Shown piece after piece: positions 5,321 to 58,022 of a DNA stretch of 64,000 nt. Origin of the DNA: a virus; the IMG/VR virus record IMGVR_UViG_3300033143_002031, positions 96,001 through 160,000 of that record. The stretch is one strand, 5' to 3'. Within the stretch, counting starts at the first letter, position 1. Each line of letters opens with the position of its first letter. The position numbers and the translations under genes were made by a program. The notes under the pieces were generated by a model, which saw nothing but the letters and a program-made list of their open reading frames with translations, was not told the DNA's origin and did no database searches.

Positions 5321-5362
5321 GAGGGAGATCGAAAGTGGGATGACTTCCCGCTAGGAGAGACG

Positions 5363-27508: not shown

Positions 27509-29854
27509 GTGGATGTGACAGTCACAGGGTGGGCGTGGTTGCCCAAGGCGGACCTGACGCCAGACCAGATCGTGAACATGGAGCGCATGCTCACGGTTCA
27601 CCCGCAGAAGATCGGGGACTACCCGGGCGACGAGCCCCTGCCGATCCACCTGTATGCGAACGAGAGTGACCGCTTCGGCGTCCCCCGCGAGTTCTTTTTC
27701 AGCAATCGGCGTGCGACTCACAACATCGACCTCCAGGTCACAGAAGGATCTAAGGACTGGTGGCCGGCGGAGTTTGTCGGCCTCCTTCGGACGGAGCAGA
27801 AGACCGCTCTGAACGAGGTGGTGGCGATGTTCCGGGCCGGGCGGATGGGCGGGATCATCCAAGCCAAGCCGGGCTGGGGGAAGTGCCTGGGTATCGGAAC
27901 TCCCGTGCTCATGTTCGATGGAGCGATAAAGCCTGTCGAGGACATTCAAGATGGCGATCTTCTCATGGGGCCGGACAGCCGACCCCGCCGCGTTTTGTCT
28001 ACGACACGCGGCACCGGACCGCTATACGAGATCGTTCCGTTGCGTGGAGAGTCCTGGGTGTGCAACGACGCTCACATCTTGACTCTGGTTCACTCCCTGA
28101 CAGGAGAAGTACAGGATATTGAGGTGGGGGAGTACCTGAAGCTATCGAAGACGGAGCGGCATTACCTCAAGCAGTTTGCTCCGGAGCAAGGGGTCGACTT
28201 TCTCTCAGCCGAGCCACTTCTGCTGGACCCGTACTTTTTGGGGGTGTGGTTCGGGGACGGTACGAAGGGTGCGGACGAGGGGGTCTTGAGGAAGGTAGCG
28301 GTCACTAAGCGGGACGAAGAGATCAAGAAGCTGTGCGAGGATGTGGCGTCGAGGTACGGTCTCCATGTCCGCGTGGAAACTTCTGGAGGTACGCGGTGCC
28401 CTACCTACCATCTCACAACTGGCAGGACGGGAGGAGGCCGGAACGCGCTTCTCGATCTTTTGCGTCGTGTCGTGGGGGACGCATCTGAGGTCCCTCGTCA
28501 GTATCTCACCGCGTCCAGGTCGGATCGAAGGGCACTGCTCGCGGGTTTTTTGGACTCGGACGGCCACCTCAATAACGGTTATTTCGACATCGTGCAGAAG
28601 CGGCGCTCTTATGCGGAGGCCGTCATGTTCCTCGCCCGATCTCTTGGGTTTCGGGCGAGGGTGTCGGAGAAAATTGTACACGGGGAGGTCTACTGGCGCA
28701 TGGGTCTGTCCGGCGATTTCTCTACACTTCCCCTGCGTGTGTCCCGAAAGAAGGCCCCTCCCCGGCGACAGAAAAAGGTGCCTACTCGGACAGGGTTCGA
28801 TGTTCGTTTTGCGGGGACCGGGGCGTATGCGGGGTTTACGTTGGACGGGGACGGGCGGTTCCTCCTCGGAGATTTCACCGTGACTCACAACACGGTCGTG
28901 GCGCTGGCTATCGCTGCCGAGCTAGGTGTGCCTACCCTCGTCGTAGTCCACAAGGAATTTCTGATGGACCAGTGGACGGAGCGGATCGAGAAGTTCCTTC
29001 CGGCGGCGAAGATAGGTCGCGTCCAGCAAGACACCTGCGACTTCCGGGGCAAGACTGTGGTCATGGGCATGGTTCACTCCCTTGGAGGAGAGCAGCCCTA
29101 CCCTGAAGACCTGTGGGAGTGGCCGGGTTTGGTCATCGTGGACGAGGTGCACCGTATCGGAGCCCGCACGTGGGCTCCTGTTCCTCCGAGGTTCCAAGCC
29201 AAGTACCGCCTCGGATTCACGGCGACGCCCCGGCGCAAGGATGGCGCCGACGACGTGTTCTGGCAGCACATCGGTCCGATTATCTTCGCGGGGAAAGAGG
29301 AGCGATTGAAGCCCGTCGTCAAGCGAGTGTGGACCAAGTTCAAACTCGTGAAGACGGACCGCTTCAATCCGAATCTGGCCCCGAAGGCGCTCATCACTCG
29401 GTTCCTGGTCAAGAGCCGCTACCGCAACGATCTGATCGCGGAGCAACTCGTCTCAGCCTTGGAGGCGGGGAGGAAGATCCTTGTGCTGAGTGAGCGCTTG
29501 CAGCACCTACAGGACATGGAGTCGCAGCTTCGGAATATGTGGCCAGCGGTGGCCGGAGACGTTTCGATCGGTCAGTACGTCGGAGGTCGAACCAAGGTCC
29601 AACTCGAACGGTCGGCGCAGGCTAAGGTCATCTTCGCCACGTCTCAGTACGCGGCCGAGGGTCTGGACATCCCGGCGCTGGACACGCTGTTCCTGACCAC
29701 GCCAATGAGCGACGTGGAGCAGGCGGTGGGTCGTATTCAGAGGCCGCACCCGGACAAGAAAGATCCTATCGTGGTGGACTTCCGCGATGACTCGATTCCT
29801 ATGTTCGAGGCGATGGGTAGGAAACGAGAGAAGTTCTACACGAGGATAGCTTGA
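27509..29854 (+). CDS. Superfamily 2 (UvsW/XPB-like) helicase containing an intein
   Basis: AKPGWGK|T Walker A split by the intein, DEVH, GFTATP.R.DG, LDTLFL, EQAVGRIQR. Confidence 0.9.
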   Translation: MDVTVTGWAWLPKADLTPDQIVNMERMLTVHPQKIGDYPGDEPLPIHLYANESDRFGVPREFFFSNRRATHNIDLQVTEGSKDWWPAEFVGLLRTEQKTALNEVVAMFRAGRMGGIIQAKPGWGKCLGIGTPVLMFDGAIKPVEDIQDGDLLMGPDSRPRRVLSTTRGTGPLYEIVPLRGESWVCNDAHILTLVHSLTGEVQDIEVGEYLKLSKTERHYLKQFAPEQGVDFLSAEPLLLDPYFLGVWFGDGTKGADEGVLRKVAVTKRDEEIKKLCEDVASRYGLHVRVETSGGTRCPTYHLTTGRTGGGRNALLDLLRRVVGDASEVPRQYLTASRSDRRALLAGFLDSDGHLNNGYFDIVQKRRSYAEAVMFLARSLGFRARVSEKIVHGEVYWRMGLSGDFSTLPLRVSRKKAPPRRQKKVPTRTGFDVRFAGTGAYAGFTLDGDGRFLLGDFTVTHNTVVALAIAAELGVPTLVVVHKEFLMDQWTERIEKFLPAAKIGRVQQDTCDFRGKTVVMGMVHSLGGEQPYPEDLWEWPGLVIVDEVHRIGARTWAPVPPRFQAKYRLGFTATPRRKDGADDVFWQHIGPIIFAGKEERLKPVVKRVWTKFKLVKTDRFNPNLAPKALITRFLVKSRYRNDLIAEQLVSALEAGRKILVLSERLQHLQDMESQLRNMWPAVAGDVSIGQYVGGRTKVQLERSAQAKVIFATSQYAAEGLDIPALDTLFLTTPMSDVEQAVGRIQRPHPDKKDPIVVDFRDDSIPMFEAMGRKREKFYTRIA
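27884..28891 (+). mobile_element. Intein with LAGLIDADG homing endonuclease (336 aa)
   Basis: Starts CLGIGTPVLMFDG, ends FTVTHN followed by Thr; LGVWFGDG and LAGFLDSDG blocks; more T-rich codons than the host gene. Confidence 0.93.
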
Positions 29855-35177: not shown

Positions 35178-36040
35178 GCAACGTGGCGGCGATTGCGGAA
35201 CTTCCGGGATCGGAAGCGTGGGGCGCGAAGATACGAAAGCGAGCGCGAGCACTGGTCAAGACCATCGACCAGGGCTATATGGAGTTGGCGGAGATCCTCC
35301 ATACTGTCTGGGCCACCCCGATCAACAACGAGTCCCACAATGCCTGCGTCACCGTGGCGTGGGGTTACGAGAGCTACGTCCAGTGGGGCGAGGAGGAGCT
35401 AGGTCTCCACAAGCGCAAGATCGAGCGCTTGAAGGCCATATGGCACCACTTCCACATCACGCTGGGCGGAAAACTCGATCGCCCGACTCGGAAGAAGATC
35501 ATCGCGCTCGGATGGACTAAGGTCCGAGAGTTGATCCGCGTCATTGACGCGGATAACGCGGAGAAGTGGGTCGAAGTGGCAGAGCACCTGAACTACGACG
35601 AGTTGTGTGAGGCCATCCGTCGCGCGCTGGAAGCCCGAGAGAAGCACGACCAGGCGAGGGCGGTGGGCACCGCCGACGACGAGGACGACGACGAGTTCAA
35701 GGGGGCTCCCCCACCGGACGACGCGGACCGCTTCAAAAAGATGTGGTTCAACCTCACGCCCGAGCAGAAGGCCAACATCGAGATGGCCATCGGGCGCGCG
35801 AAGCAACTGGCAAACTCGGACAGGCCGGGGCACTGTCTGGACCTCATCTGTACCGACTTCCTGAGCACGAACGACTTCCGGAAGGCCGACGACCCCAACA
35901 GACACCTTATCTTCCTCGCCAAGTTCGAGCGACTGCTGGGCAAGAGACTCGTCGTGATCGACGCGGCGACGTGGGTGATCGAGTACGGCATGGATGCCCT
36001 GTCGAGGGCTGCCGAGGTCTTGGAGGCGAACGATGAGTGA
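35174..36040 (+). CDS. Hypothetical phage protein, possible HTH
   Basis: GTGA overlap; GC3-rich; helical pattern. Confidence 0.7.
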   Translation: MSNVAAIAELPGSEAWGAKIRKRARALVKTIDQGYMELAEILHTVWATPINNESHNACVTVAWGYESYVQWGEEELGLHKRKIERLKAIWHHFHITLGGKLDRPTRKKIIALGWTKVRELIRVIDADNAEKWVEVAEHLNYDELCEAIRRALEAREKHDQARAVGTADDEDDDEFKGAPPPDDADRFKKMWFNLTPEQKANIEMAIGRAKQLANSDRPGHCLDLICTDFLSTNDFRKADDPNRHLIFLAKFERLLGKRLVVIDAATWVIEYGMDALSRAAEVLEANDE

Positions 36041-36272
36041 TCTGAATCTGGTGCTACCCATAACCCCAGACAACCTGCACACCGAGTTGGAGCACATCGA
36101 GGCGACCGTCAAGAAGTGGCGGGAGTACATTGGCCAGGGCATTGTCGGGATCGACAAGCCGGCTCCGGACTCTGACGAGAAGCTGGACGCCTTCCTCCGG
36201 CAGTTTACCGGCGAGATGTTCTTTGTCGCTGGCAAGTGCCAGAACATGGCTGTCGTGCTGTCCGAGCGATGA
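36033..36272 (+). CDS. Hypothetical protein
   Basis: ATG 36033 after GGAGG; overlaps both neighbours. Confidence 0.55.
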   Translation: MSDLNLVLPITPDNLHTELEHIEATVKKWREYIGQGIVGIDKPAPDSDEKLDAFLRQFTGEMFFVAGKCQNMAVVLSER

Positions 36273-37090
36273 CCCATAAGAAGAAGCTAGAAGGCAGAAC
36301 GATCTTTGAGATGCTGGACCCGACCCTTCTGGACAACAACCCTTGGAATCCGAACACGCTGGATCAGGACGACTTCAATCGGCTTGTGAGCGAGATCGAG
36401 GACGTAGGATTTATAGCTCCTGTGCAGGTCATCCCAGTCGATGGTGGGAGGTATCGGATCATCGGAGGAGAGCACCGCGTCGCGGCGGCTGTGGACCTAC
36501 GTCTTCCTTCTATTCCGGCCATGGTGCTCGATGGACCACGCTGGAAGGATGAAGACCTCCAGAAGCTCGTCACGGTGCGCCTGAATGTCCTGAGAGGGAA
36601 GCTCAACCCGGACAAGATGGCGCTGCTCTATCACCAGATGGCGAAGAGGTACGGAGAGGACGCTCTCCAGAGCCTCTTCGCCTACACGGACACGCACGGC
36701 TGGGACAAGTTGGTCAGCGGGATCAAGCAGGGCCTCTCGAAGGCGGCGCTGCCGAAGGACAAGCAGAAGGAGTTTGCTGAGAAGGCGAAGGAAGCCAAGA
36801 CCCTGAAAGACCTCGAACGCATCCTCAACGAACTGTGGTCGAGCTACGGGGACACGGTGCAGCTATCCTTCATGGTCTTCACCTACGGCAAGCGGGAGCA
36901 CTTCTACATCGCCATGGATAAGAAGACCCGGGAGGCGGTCAGGCGCATCGGAGACCACTGCAAGGGCCACGCGAAAGACATCAACACCGTCCTCGGTCCG
37001 GCACTCCAAGCGCTCGCTGACGTCCTCGACAAGAGCGAGTCGAAGAAGACCTCCAAGGCGAAGCCCCAGCAAGATGACGTCGGCTTCTGA
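36269..37090 (+). CDS. ParB/Srx N-terminal-domain protein
   Basis: NPWNPN, GFIAPV.V, YRIIGGEHRV.AA. Confidence 0.82.
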   Translation: MTHKKKLEGRTIFEMLDPTLLDNNPWNPNTLDQDDFNRLVSEIEDVGFIAPVQVIPVDGGRYRIIGGEHRVAAAVDLRLPSIPAMVLDGPRWKDEDLQKLVTVRLNVLRGKLNPDKMALLYHQMAKRYGEDALQSLFAYTDTHGWDKLVSGIKQGLSKAALPKDKQKEFAEKAKEAKTLKDLERILNELWSSYGDTVQLSFMVFTYGKREHFYIAMDKKTREAVRRIGDHCKGHAKDINTVLGPALQALADVLDKSESKKTSKAKPQQDDVGF

Positions 37091-37139
37091 CCTGTGGTAC
37101 TCCTAAACTCGGCCGAGAGATCGGTAGGGGTAGACGACC

Positions 37140-40100
37140 ATGGGCATGTTGAGCGAGGCCATTCCGCACACTTCAGGGCTCCTCGTAGAGGCCCCGAAGG
37201 CGCCGAACCCGGAGAAGTTCGTTCCGGTGTTCTCGTGGACCATGAAGCGTGTCTGGGTGTGGGTGAAGAAGGGCGGCAAGGTCTTTGGCCCCACAGAGAT
37301 CCCTCACGGCCAGGTCAAGAAGTACAAGGGAAAGCTCGGGTGGCTCCCGACAAAGACTGAGTACGTAGCGCTCTTGGACCCGAGCGCCTACACCGGCCCA
37401 GACGACCTGTACCCCCCGGGCTGGAAGTACGGGGATTCACTGGACACGTCCACGTTCGTGGGCAAGCCTGTGGACATTCCGATCCTGGCGAAATTTGAAC
37501 CGCTGGTGAAGCCCAAGGCGAAGAAGAAGGCCCCGAAGCTACCACCTGAGTTCACCCTCACGGGCAAAAAGGACCCCCATGGATTCCCCACGGTCGACGA
37601 CGACACCTCCGGAGATGTGTTTTCGATCCTCCCTGACGGACGTGTCATGGAGTTCGACCCTGACGACGGGCTCTACTACGAGGTGAAGAAGGAGGGAGCC
37701 ACCTGGTTCACTCAGGCCGCCCCCACCTACTCGCCCGCCGACCTGAAGCCGGGGCCAGCCATAAAGCCAAAGGCGAAGCCGCAGCCGATGGAGCCTCCGG
37801 AGGACTTCGAGCTACCTCCGAACTACACGATCAAGAAAGTCACGCCGTCGCATGTGGTCGCCATAACGCCGGACGGCACGGACGTGAAGTGGATCAAGGT
37901 CACGAACCATTGGGTCCACGCTGACGACCCCACAAAGGACCACGAGCCCCTTCAGTCCGCGACTCTCAAGACCAAGACCAAGACCAAGGCCAAGGCCAAA
38001 TCCAAGGCCCAGTCAAAGAACCCGTTCAAGGTCACCACGAAGAAGAAGCCCGGGGCGCCGTCGAAGAAGTACAGCACCAAGAAGGGCAAGCCCTCCACGA
38101 AAGCTCCGGAGCAGGAGAAGGTCGTTGCGCCTCACGCCGAACTGGCGCCTCACCTCACCAAGTACACGGGTCAGGTCGATGTGAACGGCCTCCCGCTCGT
38201 GGACGAAGTGATGGAGGTGGCTTCCGACGATGAGCAGGTGGCGAAGGGCCTGACGCTCATGCCGGACGACCGTGTGGCCCGATGGCGCCCGGACAGTGGC
38301 GTCTACCTGCTCTACGACTACGATCCCTACTACGGGTTTATGTTCTCGAAGTCGGGGGAGACCGTCTCCCCGGACGAGGCCAAGAAACTCATGACGGTCT
38401 TGTCCCTGACGGTCAAGAACGGCCGCTATCACCAGTTCCAGAACGTGGGGGCGGACAAGGCCCAGCCGTCCACCTACAGCGTGCCCTTGCCGAACGACTG
38501 CAAGTCGATCTCGCAGAAGGACACGAACGGCCTTCCCATGGTGGAGTCGATCCCAACCGACGATATGGACGACAACCACAAGTTGACGCTCCTCCCCGAC
38601 AGCCGCCTGGCCAGGTGGGACCCGCTGTCGATTCAGTACCTCGTGTGGGAATGGAGGGACATCCTCGGGGACTACAACTACTACCCGACCCACCCGACCG
38701 TGTACGTCACCTTGAAGGAGGTCAAGAAACTCCAGGCTCAGGTGCCCTCTGTGCCCGTCAGCACCCCCGTGGAGCCTCCGGAGTGGAAGCCCAAGGCGAA
38801 GCCCAAGGCGAAGCCCAAGGCGAAGCCTACGGGCGCCCTGGAGCCCGCAAACGCCAAGGACCCCAGGGGCTACCCTGTCGGGCTGTACAAGGGCAGCACG
38901 TATGCCATTCTGCCGGACGGCAAGGTCGGCGTCTGGTCCAAAGCGAACGGCGCCTACGTGCTCCACCAGTATGACGCGCTCGGGGACAGCTACTACAACT
39001 CGGGCTACATGTGGACTCCCCCGGGGATGCACCAAGCCCTGGCCCCGGACCACGGTACTTTCAGTGCTACCTTGGCCCATGTCGTGGACCACGACGGGAA
39101 GTCGGTCCTGGTGCTCCCGAACGGGAAGTTTGCCGAGCACAAGTACATCGACGGCAAGTCCAAGATCGTCATCTACAAGGCCGACCCGGCGCAGGGGAAG
39201 AAGTTCGTTCCGACCGGAGAGATACTCGACCCATCGGACCTGAAGGACGTGATAGGGGAGCCTGACTACAAGACCCTGAAGCCCACGGGTGAGGTGGATG
39301 ACAACGGCCTCCCAACCTACAAGGTTGTGCAGGGAGACTCCAAGCACCTGAAGCCCTTGGCGATGCTCCCGAACGGCTCCATGGCGGCGTGGAACCCCAA
39401 GGCGAAGACATACCGCCTGATGGAGTTTGACCCGCAGTTCGCGGTGTGGGAATTGTCCTTCCCGAAGGAGACATTCGATCTCAGCGACATCGACGCGATG
39501 TATCTGAAGTCCGGGGTCACCCCGATATCTGAGCCGCCGGCCCCCGCGAAGGCGATGACCCCTCTGGTGCCGGCGAAGGCAGTGAAGTCGGACGAGCCCG
39601 AGGCACCAAAGAAGCCCCCGAAGATGCCGGCAGCGGCGGCGTTCGTCACTCCGCAGGCCGACCTCCCCGACCCCGACACGCTGGAGGACATCGGGTCGGC
39701 CGGGATGAAGGGTGCCGGAGCCAAGACGCGACTCAAGGACCCGGACACAGGCAAGCTCTATCTGTTCAAGCCGTCGATACCGAAGAGCGGCCCGAAGAAG
39801 ACGCAGGCGTTCCGCGCCAAGTCGCAGGAGGGTTTCGCCGCCGTGGCGGCCGTAGCTCGCCCGGATGCCTATGTCCCTGTCGAGACGGTGAAGTACAAGG
39901 GGCAACTCGGGACGCTCCAACCGATGTTGGACCTGGACCCGAATCAGGAAGACCTCGCGGGCGTGGCGCCCGAGGAGTTGACGGAGCAGCAGAAGCAGGA
40001 CGTCGCCGAAGAGCACCTGCTCGATTGGCTCATGTCCCAGCACGATTCCTTCGCCGCAAACTTCGTCATCACGAAGGAGGGCCGCGTCGTCGGGATCGAC

Positions 40101-42203
40101 AAGGAACAGGGCTGGAAGTACGTCGGTCACAAGTCCCACCCCGACGAGTTGAGTACGGAGTACCGACCCAACAGCGACCTCTACGGCGAGCAGGAGCCCT
40201 ACTACAACAAGTTCTGGCGGGCGTTCGGCGGCGGCACGATGGACTTCGATCCGAAGTCCATGAACAGCGCCCTCAAAAAGCTGGAACAGATGCCCGTCGA
40301 GACCTTGACCAAGGCCCTGGAGGGGTACGCGGCCACGAACAAAAAGATGCTCGGAGCGGACAAGGAATACGAGCGCTACGCTTTCGTGAAGAAGATGGTC
40401 TCTCGCCGGGCGACGCTGCGTCGGGACTTCGAGGAGTTCATCACGGAGAAGTACGTGAAGCGCGAGGGCGAGACCGGGAAGTTTACGTTCGCGGCGGGGT
40501 GGGTGAGCGACGCCTCGGAGGCGGCCGGGCCGCAGTCCACATTCCAGGAGGTCTCGGACACCCTCCGAGGGCTCATCCTGAAGCATCTCGGCTCGAACGC
40601 CCTGAAGCCGCACAAGTCGGACCCGGACCTCACGGTCGTGCGTGTCCAGAATATGGAGCCGATCACAAAGGTCACGGAGTACCTCCAAGAACTAGGTGTC
40701 GAGGTGGTGGGAGAGCCGAAGATGGGCTCGAACTACAACATGGTGTTCGTGAAGAGCGGTGACCTCGACAAGACGATCACCAAGACGATCGAGATCAAGT
40801 CCGAACCAGGGCAGAAGTACCAGGACTTCAAGGGCTCCCCGACGTACCAGTCTGAGGCGTTCGCGCCCCAAGAGGCTCCTGCCAACATCGACGAGATCAT
40901 CACGGTCGAGCAGGACCACCTGGGCCACGTCGGGAAGCAGTTCACCCTGGACGGCAAGGCTGTGGAAGGGCAGTCAGCTAGCATTCAGAGGGTCATCCTC
41001 ACGAACGGGAAGAAGGCCCACGTCGTCCACTTCAAACTCCGGAAGCCCTACTGGAAGGACATCACCGGGGGCGAGCCTGGCGAGTACAAGTGGCACCTCG
41101 GCGCCTACGACGAGGGCGAGGACGCGGTGCGTTACTCGTCGAGCGGGGGGCACTCTGAGAAGGCGCTCGTCTTCAAGGGGCCGAAAGGTTCGGAGATGTT
41201 CGTGCTCGGGCCGAAGGTGGACCACTCACACTACGGCAACAAAGCCAGTTACTCCTTCCAGGGGTCGGTGTACGCGATCATCCCTGAAGGGGCTGGGAAG
41301 GTGAAGACGGTTCTGAAGAAGCTGCTCGATGAGATCGGACTCGCGAAGGAGGTTCTGAAGAAGCCGAGCAAGTCGGACGTCGAACTGTTCCATCTATCGC
41401 AGGCGCTCTGGTCGGTCTCCCCGAAGGTCCACGACAAACTCATCGAGGATGACGTTGAGTTGACGATCCCCCTTCTGAAGAAGAAGCTGAAGGGCAAGTT
41501 GAAGAAGGACGAGATCGAGGCCATTCGCACAGTCCAAGGCCCACTCGGAAGGGCGTCGGCGATCATCCCAGGTCGGTGGAAGACGCTCGGAGGCGGGACC
41601 GAGGACGACCCGGTGGTCCGGTTCCCGTTCTGGCAGGTGGACAACCCTAGCAAGGTGGCCAACATACTCAAGACCGGAGGCGTAGGCGCTCACGAGCGGA
41701 TGCGGATGGGGCTTGGTACTGGGGGCTCGTCGGTCCACTCCGACATGGAGACCGGCGGCTCGGACAACGTGACCACGCGGATCGCGATGAAGGACCACTA
41801 CGGCTCGATGGACCAGGGAAATGTCCAGGGCGCTATCAAACTCGTCATCGCACCGGAACTCCTGGACCGGCTTGACGTTCACCTTGCGCGGGGGGACTCC
41901 TACGGGGCCACCAAGCCTGGGCATTCGTCGTTCTACGACAACCGGAAGGGGCTGAGCAGCGCGGTCAAGGCGGAGAACGCAAGCAAGCACTCGAACACGG
42001 AACTGGTCTTGCGGCGTGGGTTCCCGGCCTCCATGATCAAGCGCATTGCGACGGGGGGCGAGAGCACGCGGAAGAAGGTTCTGGCAGCCCTGGATAACGC
42101 CGGCATCACCGAGCACAATGGGGTGCCCATCGAGGATTTCGTGGTCGTTGAAACGGATCAGAAGGCTATGTACACCAAGTACCTGAAGCCGCTGGGGTAC
42201 TGA
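37140..42203 (+). CDS. 1687-aa multidomain protein: about 7 short repeats, HipA/PI3-4K-like kinase domain, putative ART-fold C-terminal domain
   Basis: Repeats of D.NG.P...L.(L/M)PD.R.A.W; kinase motifs GMKGAG, YLFKP, DWLMSQHDSFAAN, VVGIDKE; C-terminal NILKTGG...TELVLRRGFPASMIKRI. Confidence 0.7.
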   Translation: MGMLSEAIPHTSGLLVEAPKAPNPEKFVPVFSWTMKRVWVWVKKGGKVFGPTEIPHGQVKKYKGKLGWLPTKTEYVALLDPSAYTGPDDLYPPGWKYGDSLDTSTFVGKPVDIPILAKFEPLVKPKAKKKAPKLPPEFTLTGKKDPHGFPTVDDDTSGDVFSILPDGRVMEFDPDDGLYYEVKKEGATWFTQAAPTYSPADLKPGPAIKPKAKPQPMEPPEDFELPPNYTIKKVTPSHVVAITPDGTDVKWIKVTNHWVHADDPTKDHEPLQSATLKTKTKTKAKAKSKAQSKNPFKVTTKKKPGAPSKKYSTKKGKPSTKAPEQEKVVAPHAELAPHLTKYTGQVDVNGLPLVDEVMEVASDDEQVAKGLTLMPDDRVARWRPDSGVYLLYDYDPYYGFMFSKSGETVSPDEAKKLMTVLSLTVKNGRYHQFQNVGADKAQPSTYSVPLPNDCKSISQKDTNGLPMVESIPTDDMDDNHKLTLLPDSRLARWDPLSIQYLVWEWRDILGDYNYYPTHPTVYVTLKEVKKLQAQVPSVPVSTPVEPPEWKPKAKPKAKPKAKPTGALEPANAKDPRGYPVGLYKGSTYAILPDGKVGVWSKANGAYVLHQYDALGDSYYNSGYMWTPPGMHQALAPDHGTFSATLAHVVDHDGKSVLVLPNGKFAEHKYIDGKSKIVIYKADPAQGKKFVPTGEILDPSDLKDVIGEPDYKTLKPTGEVDDNGLPTYKVVQGDSKHLKPLAMLPNGSMAAWNPKAKTYRLMEFDPQFAVWELSFPKETFDLSDIDAMYLKSGVTPISEPPAPAKAMTPLVPAKAVKSDEPEAPKKPPKMPAAAAFVTPQADLPDPDTLEDIGSAGMKGAGAKTRLKDPDTGKLYLFKPSIPKSGPKKTQAFRAKSQEGFAAVAAVARPDAYVPVETVKYKGQLGTLQPMLDLDPNQEDLAGVAPEELTEQQKQDVAEEHLLDWLMSQHDSFAANFVITKEGRVVGIDKEQGWKYVGHKSHPDELSTEYRPNSDLYGEQEPYYNKFWRAFGGGTMDFDPKSMNSALKKLEQMPVETLTKALEGYAATNKKMLGADKEYERYAFVKKMVSRRATLRRDFEEFITEKYVKREGETGKFTFAAGWVSDASEAAGPQSTFQEVSDTLRGLILKHLGSNALKPHKSDPDLTVVRVQNMEPITKVTEYLQELGVEVVGEPKMGSNYNMVFVKSGDLDKTITKTIEIKSEPGQKYQDFKGSPTYQSEAFAPQEAPANIDEIITVEQDHLGHVGKQFTLDGKAVEGQSASIQRVILTNGKKAHVVHFKLRKPYWKDITGGEPGEYKWHLGAYDEGEDAVRYSSSGGHSEKALVFKGPKGSEMFVLGPKVDHSHYGNKASYSFQGSVYAIIPEGAGKVKTVLKKLLDEIGLAKEVLKKPSKSDVELFHLSQALWSVSPKVHDKLIEDDVELTIPLLKKKLKGKLKKDEIEAIRTVQGPLGRASAIIPGRWKTLGGGTEDDPVVRFPFWQVDNPSKVANILKTGGVGAHERMRMGLGTGGSSVHSDMETGGSDNVTTRIAMKDHYGSMDQGNVQGAIKLVIAPELLDRLDVHLARGDSYGATKPGHSSFYDNRKGLSSAVKAENASKHSNTELVLRRGFPASMIKRIATGGESTRKKVLAALDNAGITEHNGVPIEDFVVVETDQKAMYTKYLKPLGY
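38787..38822 (+). repeat. Three copies of a 12-nt tandem repeat (KPKA)
   Basis: AAGCCCAAGGCG x3, encoding a basic linker. Confidence 0.9.
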
Positions 42204-42204
42204 C

Positions 42205-43398
42205 ATGTCACTGGACTTCAACACCGTCTACAAACTCAGGCTCGGGAGCGACCCGGCTCACCCCGAGATCGTCATGGCTCCTGTGCCGCTCCCTGCGGGG
42301 AAGGGGTGGTGGGTCCGTCGCACCTCTCCAGACCATCCGGAACGCATCCTCCGAGGCGACACGTTCGAGGGGGAGGGTGGGAAGGTCGTCGTGGTGACTA
42401 AGGACGGCCCAGCCACCTTCGAGCCTCTGACGCTGGACCTGTGGAAGGGGATGAACCCTTCCGATTCCTCCCACCTGCCGTTCGACTCGGATGGCGATTT
42501 GCAGGAGTTTTACTGGCACGATTGGATGACGGCCTCGGAGGAGACCGGGGTGGGGGACATCGACTCGATCTCCAAGGCCCTCGCCATTCAGTACGGGGCT
42601 GAGATACAGGAGGGCCGTAAAGCCAAGCCTGGCGAGGTCCACCAGTGGAGCGACGGCTCCTACCTGAAGCTGCGCGATGGCACCTGGCAGAAGATACCCG
42701 GCACGGAGCCCGCCGCCGAGGGCGCGGAGATAATGGCCGAGACGATCACGCGACTGAATGGGATGGTCGGAAGCGGCGAGTTGGCTCCCGGGATGGACAT
42801 TCAGGACCACATCGACCAGGCCCGTGGCGTCGTGGACGCGCATAGGAAGGGTGTGGTCGCGTTCGGCGCGAAGCTGGAGGAGATGGCCGGGGGTGGCGCG
42901 AATGTCCAGGGCCGGGTGAAAACTCTCGGCTCGGTCCTCGGGAAGATCGCTACCAAGCCGCACTGGTTCAAAAAGGCGGATGACGTGCAGGACGGCACAG
43001 GCTACCGGATCATCCACGACAGCCTAGACGACGTGACGCGCTCCGTCGGGAAGATCAAGAAACAGTTCAAGGTGAAGGCGGAGCGGGACTACATCTCGAA
43101 CCCGCAGGGCAGCTACCGATCGCACCACCTGATCGTGGAGGACGAAGACGGCCTGGAGAAAGAGATCCAGGTCCGGACGCGCCGGCAGCACGAGATGGCG
43201 GAGTGGTCGCACGACGTGTTCAAGCCACGGACGTCAGAGCAGAAGAAGAAGGTCGACGCCAACCGCAAAGAGATCGAGAAGACCCAGGCGAAGATTGCCG
43301 AGTGGGCATACGAGAAAGACAAGGGCAAGGACCCCGGCCCCCAGCCGGAGTGCCCCGAGCAGGTGTCCAACGCAGTCGGGTGCCGATCACTAGGGTGA
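42205..43398 (+). CDS. Small alarmone synthetase (RelA/SpoT nucleotidyltransferase domain) with long N-terminal extension
   Basis: GRVK...S..GK, D.TGYRI, YISNP..SYRSHH, EIQVRT..QH..AEWSH. Confidence 0.88.
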   Translation: MSLDFNTVYKLRLGSDPAHPEIVMAPVPLPAGKGWWVRRTSPDHPERILRGDTFEGEGGKVVVVTKDGPATFEPLTLDLWKGMNPSDSSHLPFDSDGDLQEFYWHDWMTASEETGVGDIDSISKALAIQYGAEIQEGRKAKPGEVHQWSDGSYLKLRDGTWQKIPGTEPAAEGAEIMAETITRLNGMVGSGELAPGMDIQDHIDQARGVVDAHRKGVVAFGAKLEEMAGGGANVQGRVKTLGSVLGKIATKPHWFKKADDVQDGTGYRIIHDSLDDVTRSVGKIKKQFKVKAERDYISNPQGSYRSHHLIVEDEDGLEKEIQVRTRRQHEMAEWSHDVFKPRTSEQKKKVDANRKEIEKTQAKIAEWAYEKDKGKDPGPQPECPEQVSNAVGCRSLG

Positions 43399-43403
43399 GG
43401 ACG

Positions 43404-43628
43404 ATGGCGAAGAAGACAGACATGGAGAAGCGGCTCGAAGCGAAGGCGAAGATGATCCCGAAGGAGGGGTTCAACCTCGTCGGGTTCGACGACTTCGAGG
43501 AGCCTGGAGATGAGCTACACCTGGCGGCGCGATTCGACACGCACGAAGAGGCCGACGCCGCCATGAAGAAGCGGATGAAAGACGACCCGAGCCAGCGCTT
43601 CTTCATCTACGGCCCCGACGACCACTAG
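43404..43628 (+). CDS. Small protein downstream of the SAS (possible antitoxin)
   Basis: ATG 43404 after GAGG, 5 nt after the SAS stop; 74 aa. Confidence 0.6.
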   Translation: MAKKTDMEKRLEAKAKMIPKEGFNLVGFDDFEEPGDELHLAARFDTHEEADAAMKKRMKDDPSQRFFIYGPDDH

Positions 43629-43967
43629 CCATGCCTGGCACGTCCGTGTTGGCTGCGATCGTCCCTCCTCGCGTGTGGCTGCGACGGAGTTTGTGACCGC
43701 CCTCACCGACAACGGTATCGAGGCTCGCGTCGTCGGGCTGTGGGCTGCCAAAGTGATGACTCCGCTGGGGCGTGAGAGCAGGGTTGCGGGTGCGCTCGTA
43801 GCTGCTATTCTGTCGGTCGATCTGAGGCGTACTCGCGCGCACGCGAAACTGCTCGGGGTGCGCCTGCTAGCCCTTGAAATAAACGGATGCCCTTCAAGAG
43901 CAAACGTGGTATAGTCCCAACTATGGATGTTGGGAGCGATCACTCCCAAGGATAAGGAGATCGGACG

Positions 43968-44429
43968 ATGGCTGATTCAAAAGTCGCAGGTGTCGCCGCA
44001 GCCGTGAAGAAGGCCAAGGGGAAGCCAGTGAAGAAGCGCGGCGAGGCAAAGGCGAAGCCCCACAAGGTGACCAAGCCGAGGAAGAAGAAGGCCGCCGCGA
44101 AGAAGGCGCCCCCGAAGAAGACTGCTGAGAAGAAGACCCCGACGAGCGGTCAGAGCGCTCCGTCCATAGAGCTTTCCACGGACGGTCTCAACACGAAGGA
44201 GGACAAGGTCTTCGCCGCGCTCAACGGCCCCGGTTCGGGCGTGCGGACGATCCTGACCATCGCGGAACTGTCGGAGACGTGCTTCAAGTCGCGCGGGAGG
44301 CGGCAGGCCAACTCGTGGACCCGGAACTCGCTTCGGCGCCTCGTGCAGGCCGGGCTCGTGGAGAAGGTCGCACGTGGCAAGTACCGCGTGTCGGAAGCCG
44401 GCCGTAAGAAGCTGGCCCGCGCCGCGTAG
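43968..44429 (+). CDS. Lys/Ala-rich tail plus winged-helix DNA-binding protein (linker-histone-like)
   Basis: N-terminal KKAKGKPVKK..KKKAAAKKAPPKK; C-terminal wHTH TIAELS..RNSLRRLVQAGLVEKVARGKYRV. Confidence 0.72.
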   Translation: MADSKVAGVAAAVKKAKGKPVKKRGEAKAKPHKVTKPRKKKAAAKKAPPKKTAEKKTPTSGQSAPSIELSTDGLNTKEDKVFAALNGPGSGVRTILTIAELSETCFKSRGRRQANSWTRNSLRRLVQAGLVEKVARGKYRVSEAGRKKLARAA

Positions 44430-44431
44430 TC

Positions 44432-46228
44432 GTGCTGGACTACGACTTCATCACGCGAGCGGACGACCTGAACCGCGTCGCGCAGGACGTCCTACAGGCC
44501 GACGTCCTCGGCCTTGATATCGAGACCACCTCCCTAGACCCTCGCTACGGAGACATCCGTCTGGTCCAGTTGGTCGTGCCCGGGGTGGAGAACGACGGGC
44601 GCGGTCGCATCTACGTCATCGACCTCTTTCAGACCAAGACTCTCGGCCCTGTGCTCGAAGCCATGCGGGAGACCTCCGCAATCTTCGTGATCCACAACGC
44701 CAAGTTCGAGCAGAAGTGGATGTGGTGGAAGTTCCGCCTTCGCATCTGGCCGGTGTTCTGCACGTTCCGGTCGAGCGCGATCACGTACAACGGGAAGAAG
44801 GGGCTCAGGCACAACCTTGACTCCGTGATCATCCGCGAGTTGGACGAGCACCCGGTGAACGTCGGGCAAGGGAAGTCGAACTGGTCCGGGACGCTCAACC
44901 AACAGCAGAAGGACTACGCAGCCGAGGATGTTTTGCGTTTGCTCCCCCTTCGGGTGGCTCTGAAGAAGAAGCTGACGGAGTACGGGCTGCTCACCACCGC
45001 GCTTGTGGAGTTTGGCGTGGTGTTCGCGGAGTGCCGGACCGAGTTGAATGGCTTCGCCCTCGATGAGGAGAAGTGGACCACCCTCGCGAAAGCCAACGCG
45101 GCAGCGCGATTCAAGTCCCGCGAGGAGCTACTCTACGAGCTACCGCACCCGAAGGACCAGATGGCGCTGCCGGGGATGAGCGGGCAGTGGAACGTGGACT
45201 CGCCGCAGCAGATGCTCGCTTCCCTGAAACGGCTCGGCCTGAAGATCGAGAACACGCCGGAGATCGTCCTCGCGCAGCACGCGGGTAAGTATCCCCTCGT
45301 GAAGAAGGTGCTCGACTACCGCCACATCGCACAGCGCGTCAAGACGTTCGGAATGACCTTCTTGCGCCATCTAGACGAGGACTCCCGTGTCCACACGGAG
45401 TACTTCGGGCTGCTCATTACGGGCCGCTACAGCGCGAACAAGAGCATGCACCAGATCCCACGGGCGCTGGAGTTCCGGGACTGCTTCGAGGCGCCAGAGG
45501 GGCGTAGGCTCACGGGAGCGGACTACTCAGGGATCGAGATGCGCCTGTGTGCTGAAATCTCCGGGGACCCAGCGCTGACGCAGGTGTTCATCAACGGGGA
45601 GGACGCGCACAGGGCGACAGCGGCAGTCATCATGGACATGGACCCCGACAAGGTGTCCAAGGCCCAGCGGCAGAACGCGAAGCCAGTGAACTTCGGGTTC
45701 ATCTACGGAATGATGCCAGACAAGTTGGTCCTCTACGCCATGTCGAACTACGGTGTGGCGTTGACGCCCTACCAGGCGAAGACCTACCGCAAGCGTTACT
45801 TCGAGCGCTACGCAGGGGTCGAGCAGTGGCACCGACGAGTGCTACGAGACGGGCAGCGCAACGGCTTCTCTCGGACGCTCTGTGGGCGCATCCGCTACCT
45901 GGACCCGCATGAGGCGTTCAATGAGTTCTACAACACCCCGGTGCAGGGCTCCGGAGCAGACGCCCTGAAGACCTCGCTGGCGATCGTGCAGGACGCCATC
46001 GACAAGCGCTTTGGGGTCACCTCACCGGAAACTCCTGATGGTCCCGTGAAGATCGTCCACCACGTCCACGATGAGATCATCCTGGAAACGGACGACACCC
46101 ATGAGATGGTCGCGGAGGCCGAGAGCCTGCTCAGTGAGGGCATGGTCGAGGGCATGGAGAAGTTCGTTCACCACGTGCCTGTGGTCGTAGACGCCTCCAA
46201 CGGAAAGTCATGGGCAGACATTCACTGA
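44432..46228 (+). CDS. polA: Family A DNA polymerase with 3'-5' exonuclease (no 5'-3' exonuclease)
   Basis: LDIETT, HNAKFE, YAAED, TGRYS, ADYSGIEMR, R..AK..NFG..YG, VHDE. Confidence 0.95.
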   Translation: MLDYDFITRADDLNRVAQDVLQADVLGLDIETTSLDPRYGDIRLVQLVVPGVENDGRGRIYVIDLFQTKTLGPVLEAMRETSAIFVIHNAKFEQKWMWWKFRLRIWPVFCTFRSSAITYNGKKGLRHNLDSVIIRELDEHPVNVGQGKSNWSGTLNQQQKDYAAEDVLRLLPLRVALKKKLTEYGLLTTALVEFGVVFAECRTELNGFALDEEKWTTLAKANAAARFKSREELLYELPHPKDQMALPGMSGQWNVDSPQQMLASLKRLGLKIENTPEIVLAQHAGKYPLVKKVLDYRHIAQRVKTFGMTFLRHLDEDSRVHTEYFGLLITGRYSANKSMHQIPRALEFRDCFEAPEGRRLTGADYSGIEMRLCAEISGDPALTQVFINGEDAHRATAAVIMDMDPDKVSKAQRQNAKPVNFGFIYGMMPDKLVLYAMSNYGVALTPYQAKTYRKRYFERYAGVEQWHRRVLRDGQRNGFSRTLCGRIRYLDPHEAFNEFYNTPVQGSGADALKTSLAIVQDAIDKRFGVTSPETPDGPVKIVHHVHDEIILETDDTHEMVAEAESLLSEGMVEGMEKFVHHVPVVVDASNGKSWADIH

Positions 46229-50565: not shown

Positions 50566-53500
50566 ATGATCGAGTACGAGAATGGCCACTGGCGGTCAGT
50601 GCGGACGCCGCAGGAGGGGACCGGGCTCCTGGAGAGAGACCTGGAGACCCTCACCTCCGAGGAGCGCGAGACGATCGGGGTTCTCATGGCCGAGCTAGCG
50701 GACCCCGCCGCGTCTGCCGGGCTCCTCCAGACCATCGGCAACCTGGAGTGGCTACGCACCCCGGTGGACATGCAAACTTTCTGCATGGACCCGTACTACC
50801 TCGGGAACACCTGCGACAACCTGTACCCGAGGCTCCTGGAGGACATCACCGCGCTGTTCGAGGAGGGCTATCGGGAGGCGGTCCTCACGGGCGCGATCGG
50901 GTGGGGGAAGACCTTCGCTGCGTCCATCGGCATCTGCCGGCTTCTGTACATCCTGAGTTGCATGCGGGACCCCCACCGTTCTTTCGGAATCGCAGCCAAC
51001 TCGAACATCTCGATCGTCTGCCTCTCGGTCAACGAGATCCTGGCCACCAAGGTCGCCTACGAGAACATCGCTACCAAGATCGAGGCGAGCCCCTACTTTC
51101 AGGAAAACTTCCCGTTCGAGAAGACAAAGAAGGAACTTCGCTTCCCACGCAAGGTGTGGGTGGCCGCGCGTGCGAGCAACGACGGCTCGGTCTTGGGGCT
51201 AAATGTTATTGGAGGCTTGCTGGATGAATGTGTGCCAGTCGGGTCGCTGGTGCTGCTCGGGGATGGTAAACAGGCTCGTGTGGAGACGTTGGTCGGTCGG
51301 ACCGATGTGGTGGTCGAGACGTTCGACTTCGAGCTAGGTCACGCTGTGCCAGCACAGGCGTTCGTGAAATGGTCGTCGGAGCAGCCGTGTTACGAGTTGG
51401 AGTTGGATAACGGTGGAGTGATGCGCGGGTCGGCCGATCACCCTGTTGCAGTTCGACAGGTTGACGGCACCTTCACTTTCAACGTAATGGGCGCTATCCT
51501 GGACGGGCAGGAGGTTGTGGTTCATGCCCCGATGGACGGAGGAGCGCCGGAAAGCTCATTCGGAGCGGATGAAGGCTCTGTGGGCGGAGGGACGATACAA
51601 GGACCGGGAGATGTCACCCGAGGGTCGCGAGAGGCAGGTTTCGGCGGTGCGGCAGATGCACGCGGAGGGACGGGGCTTTGTTCCGCCTCCGATGGAGGGG
51701 ACCGACAACCCGATGTATGGGAAGCGGCTCTCCGACTCGCAGAAAGAGCGCATAGGCGAAGTGAGCAGAGGCAGGCGGTGGTCGGACGAGGACCGCAAGC
51801 GCATGTCCGAGCAGCGGACCGGGAAGCCGGTCCACTCACAAGAGTTCAAGGACGCGCTGGCCGAACGCAACCGGGAGCGCAAGGGCAAGTTCAAGCACAC
51901 CGAGGAGACCAAACAGAAGATCTCCGAATCGAACATCTGGAAACTCCGCAAGGGGGACTTCCGCTACTTGGGTTGGGCGCAGACGACCAAGGCAGGGCGT
52001 GTCGGTTTCCGCAGTCTGTACGAATTGAGAGCCATCGAGTTGTTGGAGGCGGACTCCTCTGTGACGCGGTTCGAGTACGAGAAGCTGGCGGTCTCCTACT
52101 CGTTGAACGGGACGACCCGCCGCACGGTGCCGGACTTTCGAGTCTGGGGCGACAGGGATCGTGTGATCGAGGTCAAGCCCCGGGGCTTCACCTACCATTG
52201 GAAGGAGAAGCTCAAGATGGGTGCCGCGCGGCGCTACTGCGAGGAGCACGGCTTGGAGTACGTAGTCTGGGACGAGAGCTTTCTGTGGCCCGCGTCGTGT
52301 CCAAGAGAGACGTGGGAGTGCAGCCTACCTACGACGTTTCGGTCCCAGGGTACGAGTGCTTCGTCGTAGACGGGGTTCTCGTCCACAACACCAACTTCAT
52401 GCCCAAGGCGAGCAAGGGGCAGGACCCGAGGTTCAACCTTCAGGACCGGGCCGAGGTGCTGTACAACGCCATGCAGCGCCGGATGAAGTCCAGGTTCGAG
52501 CGCAAGGGACGGCTGCCCGGCATTCTGTTCGTCGTCTCCTCGAAGCAGACCAACGATGACTTCACGGCCAAGCGGGTCAAAGAGTCGATTCTCGACCCGA
52601 CAGTGTTCGTGCGGGATTACGCTCTTTGGGACGTCAAGCCGGACATCTACTACTCTGACGACTGGTTCCATGTGGTGGTGGGGAACGAGCAAGCTCCCAG
52701 TCGAATCATCGAGGTCGATGAAGACCTCGATGAGGTGAGGGTGCTGCTCCCCGAGGACTGCGTTGTGATCGAAGTTCCGGAGGACTTCCGAGTAGACTTC
52801 GAGAAAGACTTGGAAGGGGCCATCCGGGACCTTGCGGGCGTGGCCACCGTCTCCGTGAGCCCCTACATCCAACGCCGTACCAAGATCGTTGAAGCCATCC
52901 GTCCGGGCATGAAGCACCCTTTCAGCGTGGAGGTGTACGACCCCTCGCAGCCGGGGAGGTTCTACTGGCACAAGATGCTGCGGGCTGCTTCGGACGCCGA
53001 GGGCGGCAACAGGCCCATCCTGAGCCCCTACGCTCCCCGACACATCCACATCGACCCGTCGATGACAGGCGACTCCACAGGCTTCGCCATGGGGCACATC
53101 TCAGGCTGGCGTGAGGTCGTCCGGAGGGACGACGAGGGGAACAAGTACCCCGAGCGTGCTCCGGAGATCACGTTCGACGTGCTCTTGAAGATCGTCCCGC
53201 CTATCGGAGGGGAGATCGTCCTCGGCGAGATACGAAAACTCGTCTACCAGTTGAGCAAGCACGGGTACATGATCACCTGCGTGTCGATCGACTCGTGGAA
53301 CTCCGCCGACGCGATCCAGAAGTTGAATCAGCGAGGCTTCAACGCGATCCAGTTGTCGATCGACAGGACGATGGGACCCTACGACCTTCTGAAGACGGGC
53401 CTCTACGAGGACCGCATCTACTACTACGAATACGAGCCTCTCCTTCGGGAGCTACGCGAGGTCGAGCACGACCGCATGAAGCACAAGGTGGACCACCCGC

Positions 53501-53742
53501 TGCGTGGCTCGAAGGATATTTCAGACGCAGCGGCCGGGGTCATGTGGACGCTCACTGAAAACTCCTCCGCACTGCCTCTCCCCATCCTCCGCAGCGTTCC
53601 GCAGAACGGGGATGCGTGGATGCAGGAGCACCAGCAAGCGGCGATGGCGAGGAGCTACGGGAGCGAGGACACCTCGGATATGTCGGAGAGTACGGCTTTG
53701 CCTCCGTTTCTGGTAGGCTCTGGAAGCGATTGGGGCGACTGA
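50566..53742 (+). CDS. terL: Terminase large subunit containing an intein
   Basis: Walker A TGAIGWGKT, Walker B GLLDE immediately before the intein, VSS, nuclease HIHID.S...DSTG, KDISDA. Confidence 0.93.
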   Translation: MIEYENGHWRSVRTPQEGTGLLERDLETLTSEERETIGVLMAELADPAASAGLLQTIGNLEWLRTPVDMQTFCMDPYYLGNTCDNLYPRLLEDITALFEEGYREAVLTGAIGWGKTFAASIGICRLLYILSCMRDPHRSFGIAANSNISIVCLSVNEILATKVAYENIATKIEASPYFQENFPFEKTKKELRFPRKVWVAARASNDGSVLGLNVIGGLLDECVPVGSLVLLGDGKQARVETLVGRTDVVVETFDFELGHAVPAQAFVKWSSEQPCYELELDNGGVMRGSADHPVAVRQVDGTFTFNVMGAILDGQEVVVHAPMDGGAPESSFGADEGSVGGGTIQGPGDVTRGSREAGFGGAADARGGTGLCSASDGGDRQPDVWEAALRLAERAHRRSEQRQAVVGRGPQAHVRAADREAGPLTRVQGRAGRTQPGAQGQVQAHRGDQTEDLRIEHLETPQGGLPLLGLGADDQGRACRFPQSVRIESHRVVGGGLLCDAVRVREAGGLLLVERDDPPHGAGLSSLGRQGSCDRGQAPGLHLPLEGEAQDGCRAALLRGARLGVRSLGRELSVARVVSKRDVGVQPTYDVSVPGYECFVVDGVLVHNTNFMPKASKGQDPRFNLQDRAEVLYNAMQRRMKSRFERKGRLPGILFVVSSKQTNDDFTAKRVKESILDPTVFVRDYALWDVKPDIYYSDDWFHVVVGNEQAPSRIIEVDEDLDEVRVLLPEDCVVIEVPEDFRVDFEKDLEGAIRDLAGVATVSVSPYIQRRTKIVEAIRPGMKHPFSVEVYDPSQPGRFYWHKMLRAASDAEGGNRPILSPYAPRHIHIDPSMTGDSTGFAMGHISGWREVVRRDDEGNKYPERAPEITFDVLLKIVPPIGGEIVLGEIRKLVYQLSKHGYMITCVSIDSWNSADAIQKLNQRGFNAIQLSIDRTMGPYDLLKTGLYEDRIYYYEYEPLLRELREVEHDRMKHKVDHPLRGSKDISDAAAGVMWTLTENSSALPLPILRSVPQNGDAWMQEHQQAAMARSYGSEDTSDMSESTALPPFLVGSGSDWGD
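51229..52389 (+). mobile_element. Intein (387 aa) with out-of-frame internal endonuclease gene
   Basis: Starts CVPVGSLV, block B SADHP, ends YDVSV...FVVDGVLVHN followed by Thr; the in-frame middle of about 250 aa has no recognisable domain. Confidence 0.92.
51524..52369 (+). CDS. NUMOD3-repeat / TnsA-like PD-(D/E)XK homing endonuclease in the +1 frame of the intein
   Basis: AGGAGG SD at about 51509-51514 and ATG 51524; NPMYGK..S, HTEETKQKIS; FRS.YE...YE...PDF...IEVKP. Confidence 0.88.
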   Translation: MPRWTEERRKAHSERMKALWAEGRYKDREMSPEGRERQVSAVRQMHAEGRGFVPPPMEGTDNPMYGKRLSDSQKERIGEVSRGRRWSDEDRKRMSEQRTGKPVHSQEFKDALAERNRERKGKFKHTEETKQKISESNIWKLRKGDFRYLGWAQTTKAGRVGFRSLYELRAIELLEADSSVTRFEYEKLAVSYSLNGTTRRTVPDFRVWGDRDRVIEVKPRGFTYHWKEKLKMGAARRYCEEHGLEYVVWDESFLWPASCPRETWECSLPTTFRSQGTSASS

Positions 53743-57830: not shown

Positions 57831-58022
57831 ACAGCGTATTCCTCGGGGAGACGGGAAGTGGTAGGGATGGAGAAGAGTCCAGTGAAGCGTCAGACTCGAA
57901 GCGTAGGAGGATCGCGTTCGGGGCTGGATTTCACTGTCGACCTTCCCAAGACGAGCATACGGTCCGACGCCAGTCTGGACCGTGGGCCGTTCCGGTCCAA
58001 CTTCCGCTGGAAGGTGTCATGA
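57768..58022 (+). CDS. Arg-rich 84-codon -1-frame extension (or a standalone 51-aa ORF from ATG 57867); not in ORF track
   Basis: RVRRRLRALALRKGRTTRRRRTAYSSGRREVVGMEKSPVKRQ...FRWKVS; the stop overlaps the protease start (ATGA). Confidence 0.6.
   Translation, partial: RVRRRLRALALRKGRTTRRRRTAYSSGRREVVGMEKSPVKRQTRSVGGSRSGLDFTVDLPKTSIRSDASLDRGPFRSNFRWKVS

Follow-up and report, generated by a model that had tools for sequence, protein, structure and literature searches.

The gene described here, which encodes a predicted small alarmone synthetase (SAS), lies in a window of 64,000 nucleotides comprising bases 96001-160000 of a 184.7-kb IMG/VR virus record (IMGVR_UViG_3300033143_002031) that is 88% complete and whose source, judged by its predicted genes, is a T4-like phage. 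The SAS gene (42205..43398, plus strand) encodes a protein of 397 residues with a match to the Pfam family RelA_SpoT, and it is followed on the same strand by a gene for a protein of 74 residues (43404..43628), a candidate inhibitor or immunity protein whose homologs adjoin SAS genes in other loci. Read directly from the sequence, the SAS stop codon TGA occupies 43396-43398 and the ATG of the partner stands at 43404, which leaves the spacing of 5 nucleotides given by the initial annotation. A Shine-Dalgarno-like GGGTGAGGA (43393..43401, plus strand), also read from the sequence, overlaps the SAS stop codon and suggests translational coupling of SAS and its partner. In this report, we propose that SAS is an active pyrophosphokinase effector that is checked by a small, directly binding inhibitor and that belongs to a family of phage head cargo, a reading to which we give slightly better than even credence.

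The enzyme and its placement

The RelA_SpoT match covers residues 236-337 (E 1.4e-18, 67.7 bits against a cut-off of 27), the NCBIfam RelA/SpoT and YjbM models give sub-threshold matches only, and the protein has no other Pfam domain, in particular no HD hydrolase and no TGS or ACT regulatory domain. All the synthetase motifs listed in the initial annotation were found, namely G236-R237-V-K239..S243..K247, D263-G-T-G266-Y-R268, Y304-R-S306-H-H308, E320-I-Q322-V-R324-T325 and Q328-H..A-E..H336; in alignments with Rel synthetase domains their residues fall on the catalytic ones, with conservation of 90% or more among 77 relatives, and the enzyme looks catalytically intact and active. These motifs (Syn1-Syn5) make up a catalytic core (residues 236-341; 42910..43227, plus strand) that is invariant or near-invariant across the 77 members. 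Ahead of the core lies a family-specific module (residues 143-232; 42631..42900, plus strand), in which conserved alignment columns trace a beta-meander (G-x-V-x-x-W ... G-x-W) followed by two long helices, modeled as strands at 145-163 and helices at 174-228. A helical C-terminal extension follows (residues 342-397; 43228..43395, plus strand), with D372, G374, P381, C383-P384 and G392-C393 conserved and with helices 344-391 modeled at a predicted local distance difference test score (pLDDT) above 90. The N-terminal extension (residues 1-136; 42205..42612, plus strand) is lineage-specific: it is common only to the relatives P0002 and P0079 and, weakly, P0013, it matches no family, in keeping with the unrelated N-terminal region noticed at first, and it terminates with I134-Q-E136 at a family-conserved [LI]-x-E motif. 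An AlphaFold2 model built on 77 homologs reaches a pLDDT above 90 over most of residues 180-390 and stays below 50 for residues 1-117. The top Foldseek match of this model is RelQ (5ded, E 3.3e-8, target template-modeling score 0.69), RelP is also first-ranked, the long Rel enzymes come next and CapRel stands at rank 13, with Tas1/Apk1 absent from the matches listed; the modeled protein thus has the SAS fold.

Of 1.84 billion entries searched, 85 cluster representatives matched the family at E ≤ 1e-30 and 241 at E ≤ 1e-10, and a search for proteins of near length gave 15 relatives, the nearest of which (P0002, 59% identical) comes from a 201.6-kb contig. We scored the family profile against all PDB sequences and used the ranking against solved structures as a proxy for a tree of SAS subfamilies. 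RelP came first (6.6e-20, 75 bits), followed by RelQ (~4e-18, 69 bits), long Rel/RelA enzymes (1e-14 to 1e-10, 42-57 bits), CapRel (8.7e-7, 32 bits) and FaRel2 (1.5e-3, 21 bits), and there was no match to Tas1/Apk1 in the PDB at E ≤ 10. By this proxy the family is nearest to the (p)ppGpp-making small synthetases RelP and RelQ and far from CapRel and FaRel2, which are the two subfamilies of toxic SAS (toxSAS) with solved structures and the two that the comparison covered, as distinct from PhRel, PhRel2 and FaRel. The likeness to RelQ (SAS1) and RelP (SAS2) extends to the structure matches, the Y-R-S-x-H acceptor motif and the complete set of catalytic residues; in contrast, pairwise identity is 18-26% over the aligned part (Foldseek), and the window SAS adds the N-terminal beta-module with its long helices, the C-terminal extension, a partner gene and a viral setting.

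The acceptor motifs bear on the product. Apk enzymes carry RYT in Syn2, GxN in Syn3 and YH in Syn4, whereas RelA/SpoT homolog (RSH) enzymes carry AVR, SxH and IR (PMC12226406). The window SAS has G-Y-R in Syn2, S-H-H in Syn3 and V-R in Syn4, which is the RSH type, and (p)ppGpp made on a GDP or GTP acceptor is its most likely product, with ATP/ADP or the tRNA CCA end as a possible alternative acceptor. A (p)ppGpp product would leave toxicity possible, because exported toxins that make (p)ppGpp only exist (PMC12691689).

In our searches the SAS family was met only in viral sequence, all retrieved loci being viral or metagenomic contigs. No relative was found in a pattern scan of 185,579 prokaryote genomes, which needs near-exact peptide words and may miss prophages, and a scan with gp6 of the Nitrososphaera provirus Pro-Nvie1, under the same near-exact-word limit, found no relative in cellular genomes. 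A search of cultured phages matched only Pro-Nvie1 and three unannotated contigs from fecal samples. The SAS domain also matches the PADLOC defense-candidate model PDC-S33 (2.3e-16).

The partner protein and the company of the pair

The 74-residue partner founds an unannotated protein family, with homologs at E values down to 1e-25 and with 21 clusters in a set of 5.8 billion proteins, none of them carrying a Pfam domain. The family shares the core G-F-N-V-V-G-x-D-x-F-E-x-P-G-E-x-L, and its overall charge varies widely, with isoelectric points from 4.1 to 10.3. The partner had no match in Pfam, PHROGs, PADLOC or NCBIfam, and its profile had no sequence match in the PDB at E ≤ 10. An AlphaFold2 model (pLDDT 94.3) predicts the order helix-strand-strand-helix-strand, and comparison of this fold with the PDB gave nothing better than E 0.57 with Foldseek and Z 4.7 with VIA-align. 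The RelP match of the family profile, the partner homologs and this confident model together place the gene pair well outside what chance would give.

Loss of the small open reading frame (ORF) from related loci had been named beforehand as an observation that could undo the initial annotation. We ran the SAS and partner profiles over the six-frame ORFs of all retrieved loci, and the partner was found next to SAS in 21 of the 22 distinct loci that had a clear family member and downstream DNA; with one more pair (L039) and that of Pro-Nvie1, pairing holds in 23 of 24 assessable loci, and the objection does not stand. The sole exception (L011) has its SAS domain midway in a protein of 1478 residues. 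The two genes overlap by 4 nucleotides or stand at most 70 nucleotides apart in the relatives, and the partner is convergent to SAS in two loci (L007 and L021). In Pro-Nvie1 the pair is gp6/gp7, which lies between the portal gene and the protease/capsid gene and scores 7e-60 and 2e-19 with the SAS and partner profiles, respectively; in this provirus (L036, FR725450.1, pair at 4878-5721) Syn3 reads Y-R-G-Y-H, with G in place of S. Look-alikes of the partner in the ESM Atlas are clusters from Nitrososphaerota. P0002 and a partner homolog (P0172) both come from a 201,577-bp contig, probably the same one. The reverse test, a search of IMG/VR with the DNA pattern for GFNVVGVD, gave 22 matches, of which two are real partner genes, both beside SAS.

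The partner domain also occurs as the N-terminus of proteins of 694 to 862 residues (L006:7232-9316, L020:858-3446 and L030:304-2688), one of which, that of L006, passes the Pfam model PI3_PI4_kinase (28.8 bits). Among the matches listed for the partner family there were no such long fused forms, which is weak evidence.

Fusions of the synthetase domain were surveyed in the best 150 cluster representatives, of which 33 exceed 500 residues, with the SAS domain at the extreme C-terminus in 31-32 of the 33. The other domains in these long relatives are Phage_portal_3 (7), InPase (4), Zeta toxin (3), MuF (2), LPD1 (1) and ddrB-ParB (1). The fused forms are spread over a tree of 158 domains, on which parsimony gives 24 changes, of which at least nine are forced by well-supported branches; the SAS domain has therefore been joined and split many times. 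In some polyvalent proteins (P0044 and two further long relatives), a single chain unites InPase, a Zeta-toxin P-loop kinase and the SAS domain, so that two nucleotide-directed toxin domains sit on one carrier.

An HD_4 hydrolase adjoins the SAS-partner pair in four loci (L005, L006, L007 and L021), and by sequence the closest structures to the hydrolases of L005 and L007 are Rel hydrolase domains and the small alarmone hydrolases (SAH) 7qoe and 7qoc. Since an alarmone hydrolase accompanies the pair in these loci, the SAS product is presumably a 3'-pyrophosphorylated compound worth detoxifying. One of these loci (L005:5785-7607), in a 171-kb phage that is 96% complete, has two tandem SAS genes of the family, then the HD_4 hydrolase and then the partner.

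Proposed function and its alternatives

The closest known analog appears to be the Apk2-IapK-Aph1 system, which has the same organization built from parts without detectable homology. In this system of temperate phages, the (p)ppApp synthetase Apk2 is fused to MuF, and its gene is followed by that of IapK and then by that of the hydrolase Aph1; IapK, which is Tis1-like, obstructs the acceptor site. The binding immunity protein is never missing, whereas Aph1 is present only sometimes, and the system is known from B. caccae, S. pneumoniae SPNA45 and M. haemolytica (PMC10083569, PMC12226406). As in that system, relatives of the window gene carry an RSH-fold pyrophosphokinase at the C-terminus of a head protein, a small gene directly follows the toxin gene, and an HD alarmone hydrolase is present in some loci only. 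In contrast, our SAS family falls in another clade and has RSH-type Syn motifs instead of RYT, GxN and YH; the window SAS lacks a MuF carrier, MuF occurring in just two of the 33 long relatives and portal in seven; the partner has no detectable match to Tis1 or to any other solved structure, although an unlisted match does not amount to a different fold; and the hydrolases of the family are nearest to Rel and SAH enzymes, with none found in this phage.

The initial annotation had called the module toxSAS-like. What stands of this is that the phage SAS is intact and has a conserved, probably coupled partner; the enzyme, however, is unlike CapRel and FaRel2, to which the family profile gives 32 and 21 bits against 75 bits for RelP. 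toxSAS systems have been sought by their hallmark, a bicistronic arrangement of SAS and small gene (PMC7229694), and the known ones (CapRel, FaRel2, PhRel/Phrann gp29-gp30, PhRel2 and FaRel) likewise combine a single-domain SAS with a small, subfamily-specific and often overlapping partner gene, with an SAH able to act as universal antidote (PMC7229694). Unlike these, the present SAS family was met in viral or metagenomic contigs only and is often fused to virion proteins, and its partner is unrelated to ATfaRel2 or to the antitoxin domain of CapRel (Z 3.2-3.6, at noise level). The fusions resemble a further class, the polyvalent or head-associated proteins, which, in the passages of Iyer et al. 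2017 drawn on here (PMC5512222), are proposed to pass into the host along with the DNA; the relatives join SAS to InPase, MuF, LPD1, ddrB-ParB, Zeta and portal, which is the repertoire described in those passages. The same passages mention no conserved small partner and no members from archaeal viruses, and the window SAS is a solo gene beside a giant multidomain protein, not inside one.

We favor a model whereby SAS is an effector and the partner its inhibitor, because the same organization has been experimentally established for Apk2-IapK-Aph1, and the fusion of relatives to portal, MuF, InPase and polyvalent head proteins argues for effector-plus-immunity cargo over a chromosomal-style toxin-antitoxin pair. 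SAS would transfer the beta-gamma pyrophosphate from ATP to a purine nucleotide at its 3'-OH, GDP or GTP being the most likely acceptor on motif grounds and (p)ppGpp the resulting product, and unchecked activity would arrest the host's own growth program. The partner would be made from the same message by coupled translation, bind SAS one-to-one and thereby silence the enzyme in the producing cell. The usual logic of the family would be that the enzyme is made late with its inhibitor, is loaded into the capsid without it and is released active into the next host along with the DNA. In this phage the free-standing SAS may reach the prohead by a different path, and a gp21-type protease may trim it at I134-Q-E136; alternatively, its place of action may be the infected cell itself, where the partner would serve as a brake. 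It is thus toxicity, direct inhibition, product identity and packaging that we infer here. Host translation shut-off, the first of two uses suggested at the outset, is possible; the second, exclusion of competing phages, has lost ground, as the head-protein fusions point to cargo delivered together with immunity.

A lead on packaging comes from the [LI]-x-E motif, which stands six residues before the G-T-V-R of the beta-module in about 40 family members, with leucine at position 1 in 31 of 36 aligned members and glutamate at position 3 in 35 of 40. In half of the aligned members (18 of 36) it falls within the first 22 residues, where a short amphipathic leader ends in L-x-E; its counterpart in the window SAS is I134-Q-E136, at the end of the N-terminal extension. 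The T4 gp21 protease cuts after L/I-x-E, and in T4 the internal proteins and Alt are directed into the prohead by ten-residue leaders that end in L/I-x-E. The window encodes a prohead protease (58019-59722, Peptidase_S77) and a gp23-type capsid protein (59781-60080) that keeps L63-T-E65, which we take to match the propeptide cleavage site of T4 in both position and motif, and this suggests that the protease has T4-like specificity. The [LI]-x-E motif is compatible with capsid targeting and processing, and virion packaging of SAS in this phage is a tentative proposal, to which we give somewhat less than an even chance.

Several observations weigh against the model. The window SAS is itself unfused to a virion protein and located among replication genes, with no portal, MuF, InPase or LPD module in its chain (Pfam). 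The [LI]-x-E motif may be purely structural, and the extension that ends in it (residues 1-136) has no Pfam or PHROG match and is left unexplained. No alarmone hydrolase was found in the 88% of this phage that the record represents. A physical link between SAS and partner is a prediction from the conserved gene pair, and the partner fold resembles no known antitoxin or immunity protein in the Foldseek and VIA-align lists. The Syn signature is a lean, not a proof, because swapping Syn motifs left the specificity of Apk2 unconverted (PMC12226406), and the earlier caution that product specificity cannot be read from sequence with certainty was well placed, the signature being only correlative. 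Lastly, the pair is also present in the archaeal provirus Pro-Nvie1, and its hosts, the Nitrososphaerota, are not known to run a (p)ppGpp stringent response.

The occurrence of the pair in an archaeal provirus argues for a target more universal than stringent signaling, and its presence in viruses of ammonia-oxidizing archaea keeps such a target, adenine nucleotides or tRNA CCA ends, possible. This leads to a wider proposal, which we regard as possible but doubtful: the pair may be a virus-specific toxin-immunity family of bacterial and ammonia-oxidizing-archaeal tailed viruses, with capsid carriers that depend on the lineage and a target shared by both domains of life, co-injected in this phage with the giant protein. 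The carriers would be portal, MuF or a polyvalent protein, with a cleavable L-x-E leader taking their part in T4-like phages, and the target would be purine nucleotide pools or tRNA 3' ends as opposed to stringent-response signaling.

The free-standing state of SAS, unfused to any head protein, also suits an explanation without packaging, in which SAS is an intracellular host-takeover factor and the small protein a stoichiometric brake or timer. Co-expressed with the replication genes, SAS would make alarmones that stop host rRNA synthesis, replication and purine synthesis while the phage enzymes continue. The gene does sit in a replication-recombination cluster, between ParB-like/giant genes and PolA/ThyX, and alarmone-triggered host shut-off has been proposed for phage RelA/SpoT domains in the passages of Iyer et al. 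drawn on here (PMC5512222). Among the relatives, however, fusion to portal, MuF and polyvalent proteins recurs, and simultaneous, coupled translation of enzyme and brake gives no obvious timing. T4-type packaged proteins can also be encoded outside the head module, the alt and ip genes of T4 being examples. We consider takeover without packaging unlikely.

A different role for the partner, that of a chaperone, stabilizer or adaptor that docks SAS to other proteins, for instance for capsid loading, would account for the N-terminal position of its domain in the 694- to 862-residue proteins that follow SAS genes (L006, L020 and L030), which suits a docking module, and for the wide spread of isoelectric points in the family. 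Yet the gene organization mirrors that of validated toxin-immunity pairs, a detoxifying hydrolase co-occurs in four loci, and the most conserved element of the partner is the acidic loop D-x-F-E-x-P-G-E, which would suit a basic nucleotide-binding site. We find a pure adaptor improbable, and docking and inhibition by the partner are not mutually exclusive. A classical toxSAS module serving abortive infection or superinfection exclusion, like Phrann gp29/gp30, fits the bicistronic hallmark (PMC7229694) and the PDC-S33 match (2.3e-16), but we hold it to be very improbable in view of a phage that looks T4-like and lytic, a profile much nearer to RelP/RelQ than to CapRel/FaRel2, retrieved loci that are all viral or metagenomic with no relative in the strict pattern scan of 185,579 prokaryote genomes, and portal fusions that would be senseless for a resident toxin-antitoxin pair.

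On the effector-inhibitor model, the locus would extend a known set of weapons. Alarmone synthetases are deployed as the type VI secretion effector Tas1/Apk1, as toxSAS pairs and as the MuF prophage toxins Apk2, and what use such weapons are to the phage itself is an open question (PMC10083569). To this set the locus would add a second SAS clade, viral-only in our searches and RelQ/RelP-like with (p)ppGpp-type motifs, a partner family of ~70 residues without known relatives that is a candidate new inhibitor of RSH enzymes, and a version that stands free in a T4-like and probably lytic phage. The logic is shared with Apk2-IapK-Aph1 and toxSAS, and what differs is the clade of the enzyme, the partner and the free-standing setting in a T4-like phage. 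As T4-like phages are tractable, injection of an active alarmone synthetase would be directly testable.

The surrounding phage genes

By domain matches, the head genes of the phage comprise a Portal_T4 portal, the Peptidase_S77 prohead protease and the gp23 capsid protein, and the phage also encodes a DnaB helicase, a primase, RecA/UvsX, PolA and ThyX. The SAS pair is placed between a giant gene upstream (37140..42203, plus strand; 1687 residues), whose stop codon ends 1 nucleotide ahead of the SAS start, and a small helix-turn-helix gene (43968-44429; recognized by domain matches), which precedes the gene for a PolA-type DNA polymerase (44432..46228, plus strand; recognized by its translation and, weakly, by DNA similarity to a phage 'DNA polymerase'). 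The C-terminal ~860 residues of the giant protein share 30% identity (E 1e-84) with the giant protein encoded ahead of the SAS pair in L002/L003, L003 being a different T4-like phage (gp23 match 6.7e-69); a PolA-like ORF likewise lies 3' of the pair in L002, and the SAS proteins of the two T4-like phages are ~40% identical. Because giant-protein homology and a PolA gene after the pair recur in both, we regard the predicted cassette of giant protein, SAS, partner and PolA as conserved across two divergent T4-like phages.

L002 alone has an ORF of 128 residues without matches between the giant gene and SAS; that residues 1-136 of the window SAS are a fused copy of this ORF was considered and rejected (BLASTP E 12, hhalign probability 0.4%). 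The giant protein of the window starts with M-G-M-L-S-E-A and L-L-V-E-A, which contain L-x-E motifs like those of T4 capsid-targeting leaders, and that of L002 (L002:75-5606) has two copies of a kinase-like region. Homology of the giant-protein kinase region to the partner-domain proteins of L006, L020 and L030 was likewise rejected, as BLASTP and profile searches gave nothing; the one part that hhalign could align between the giant-protein kinase region and the partner-domain protein of L006 was the D-x-H-x-x-N catalytic loop (probability 2.9%), a hint only.

Around the pair, Rfam found nothing in 43000-44500, no sigma-70-like promoter was found in 36000-44600, and the T4 late-promoter consensus is absent from the window. 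The stretch of 340 nucleotides 3' of the partner (43629-43967) holds no convincing gene, its ORF of 79 residues (43675-43914) being without matches. An extended -10-like TGGTATAGT stands at 43907-43915, ~50 nucleotides ahead of the helix-turn-helix gene, and could mark the start of the next transcription unit. Elsewhere in the window, two genes contain inteins: a ResIII-type helicase gene (27509-29854) with Hint and LAGLIDADG domains, and the gene for a probable terminase of 1058 residues (50566-53742) with an intein splicing domain.

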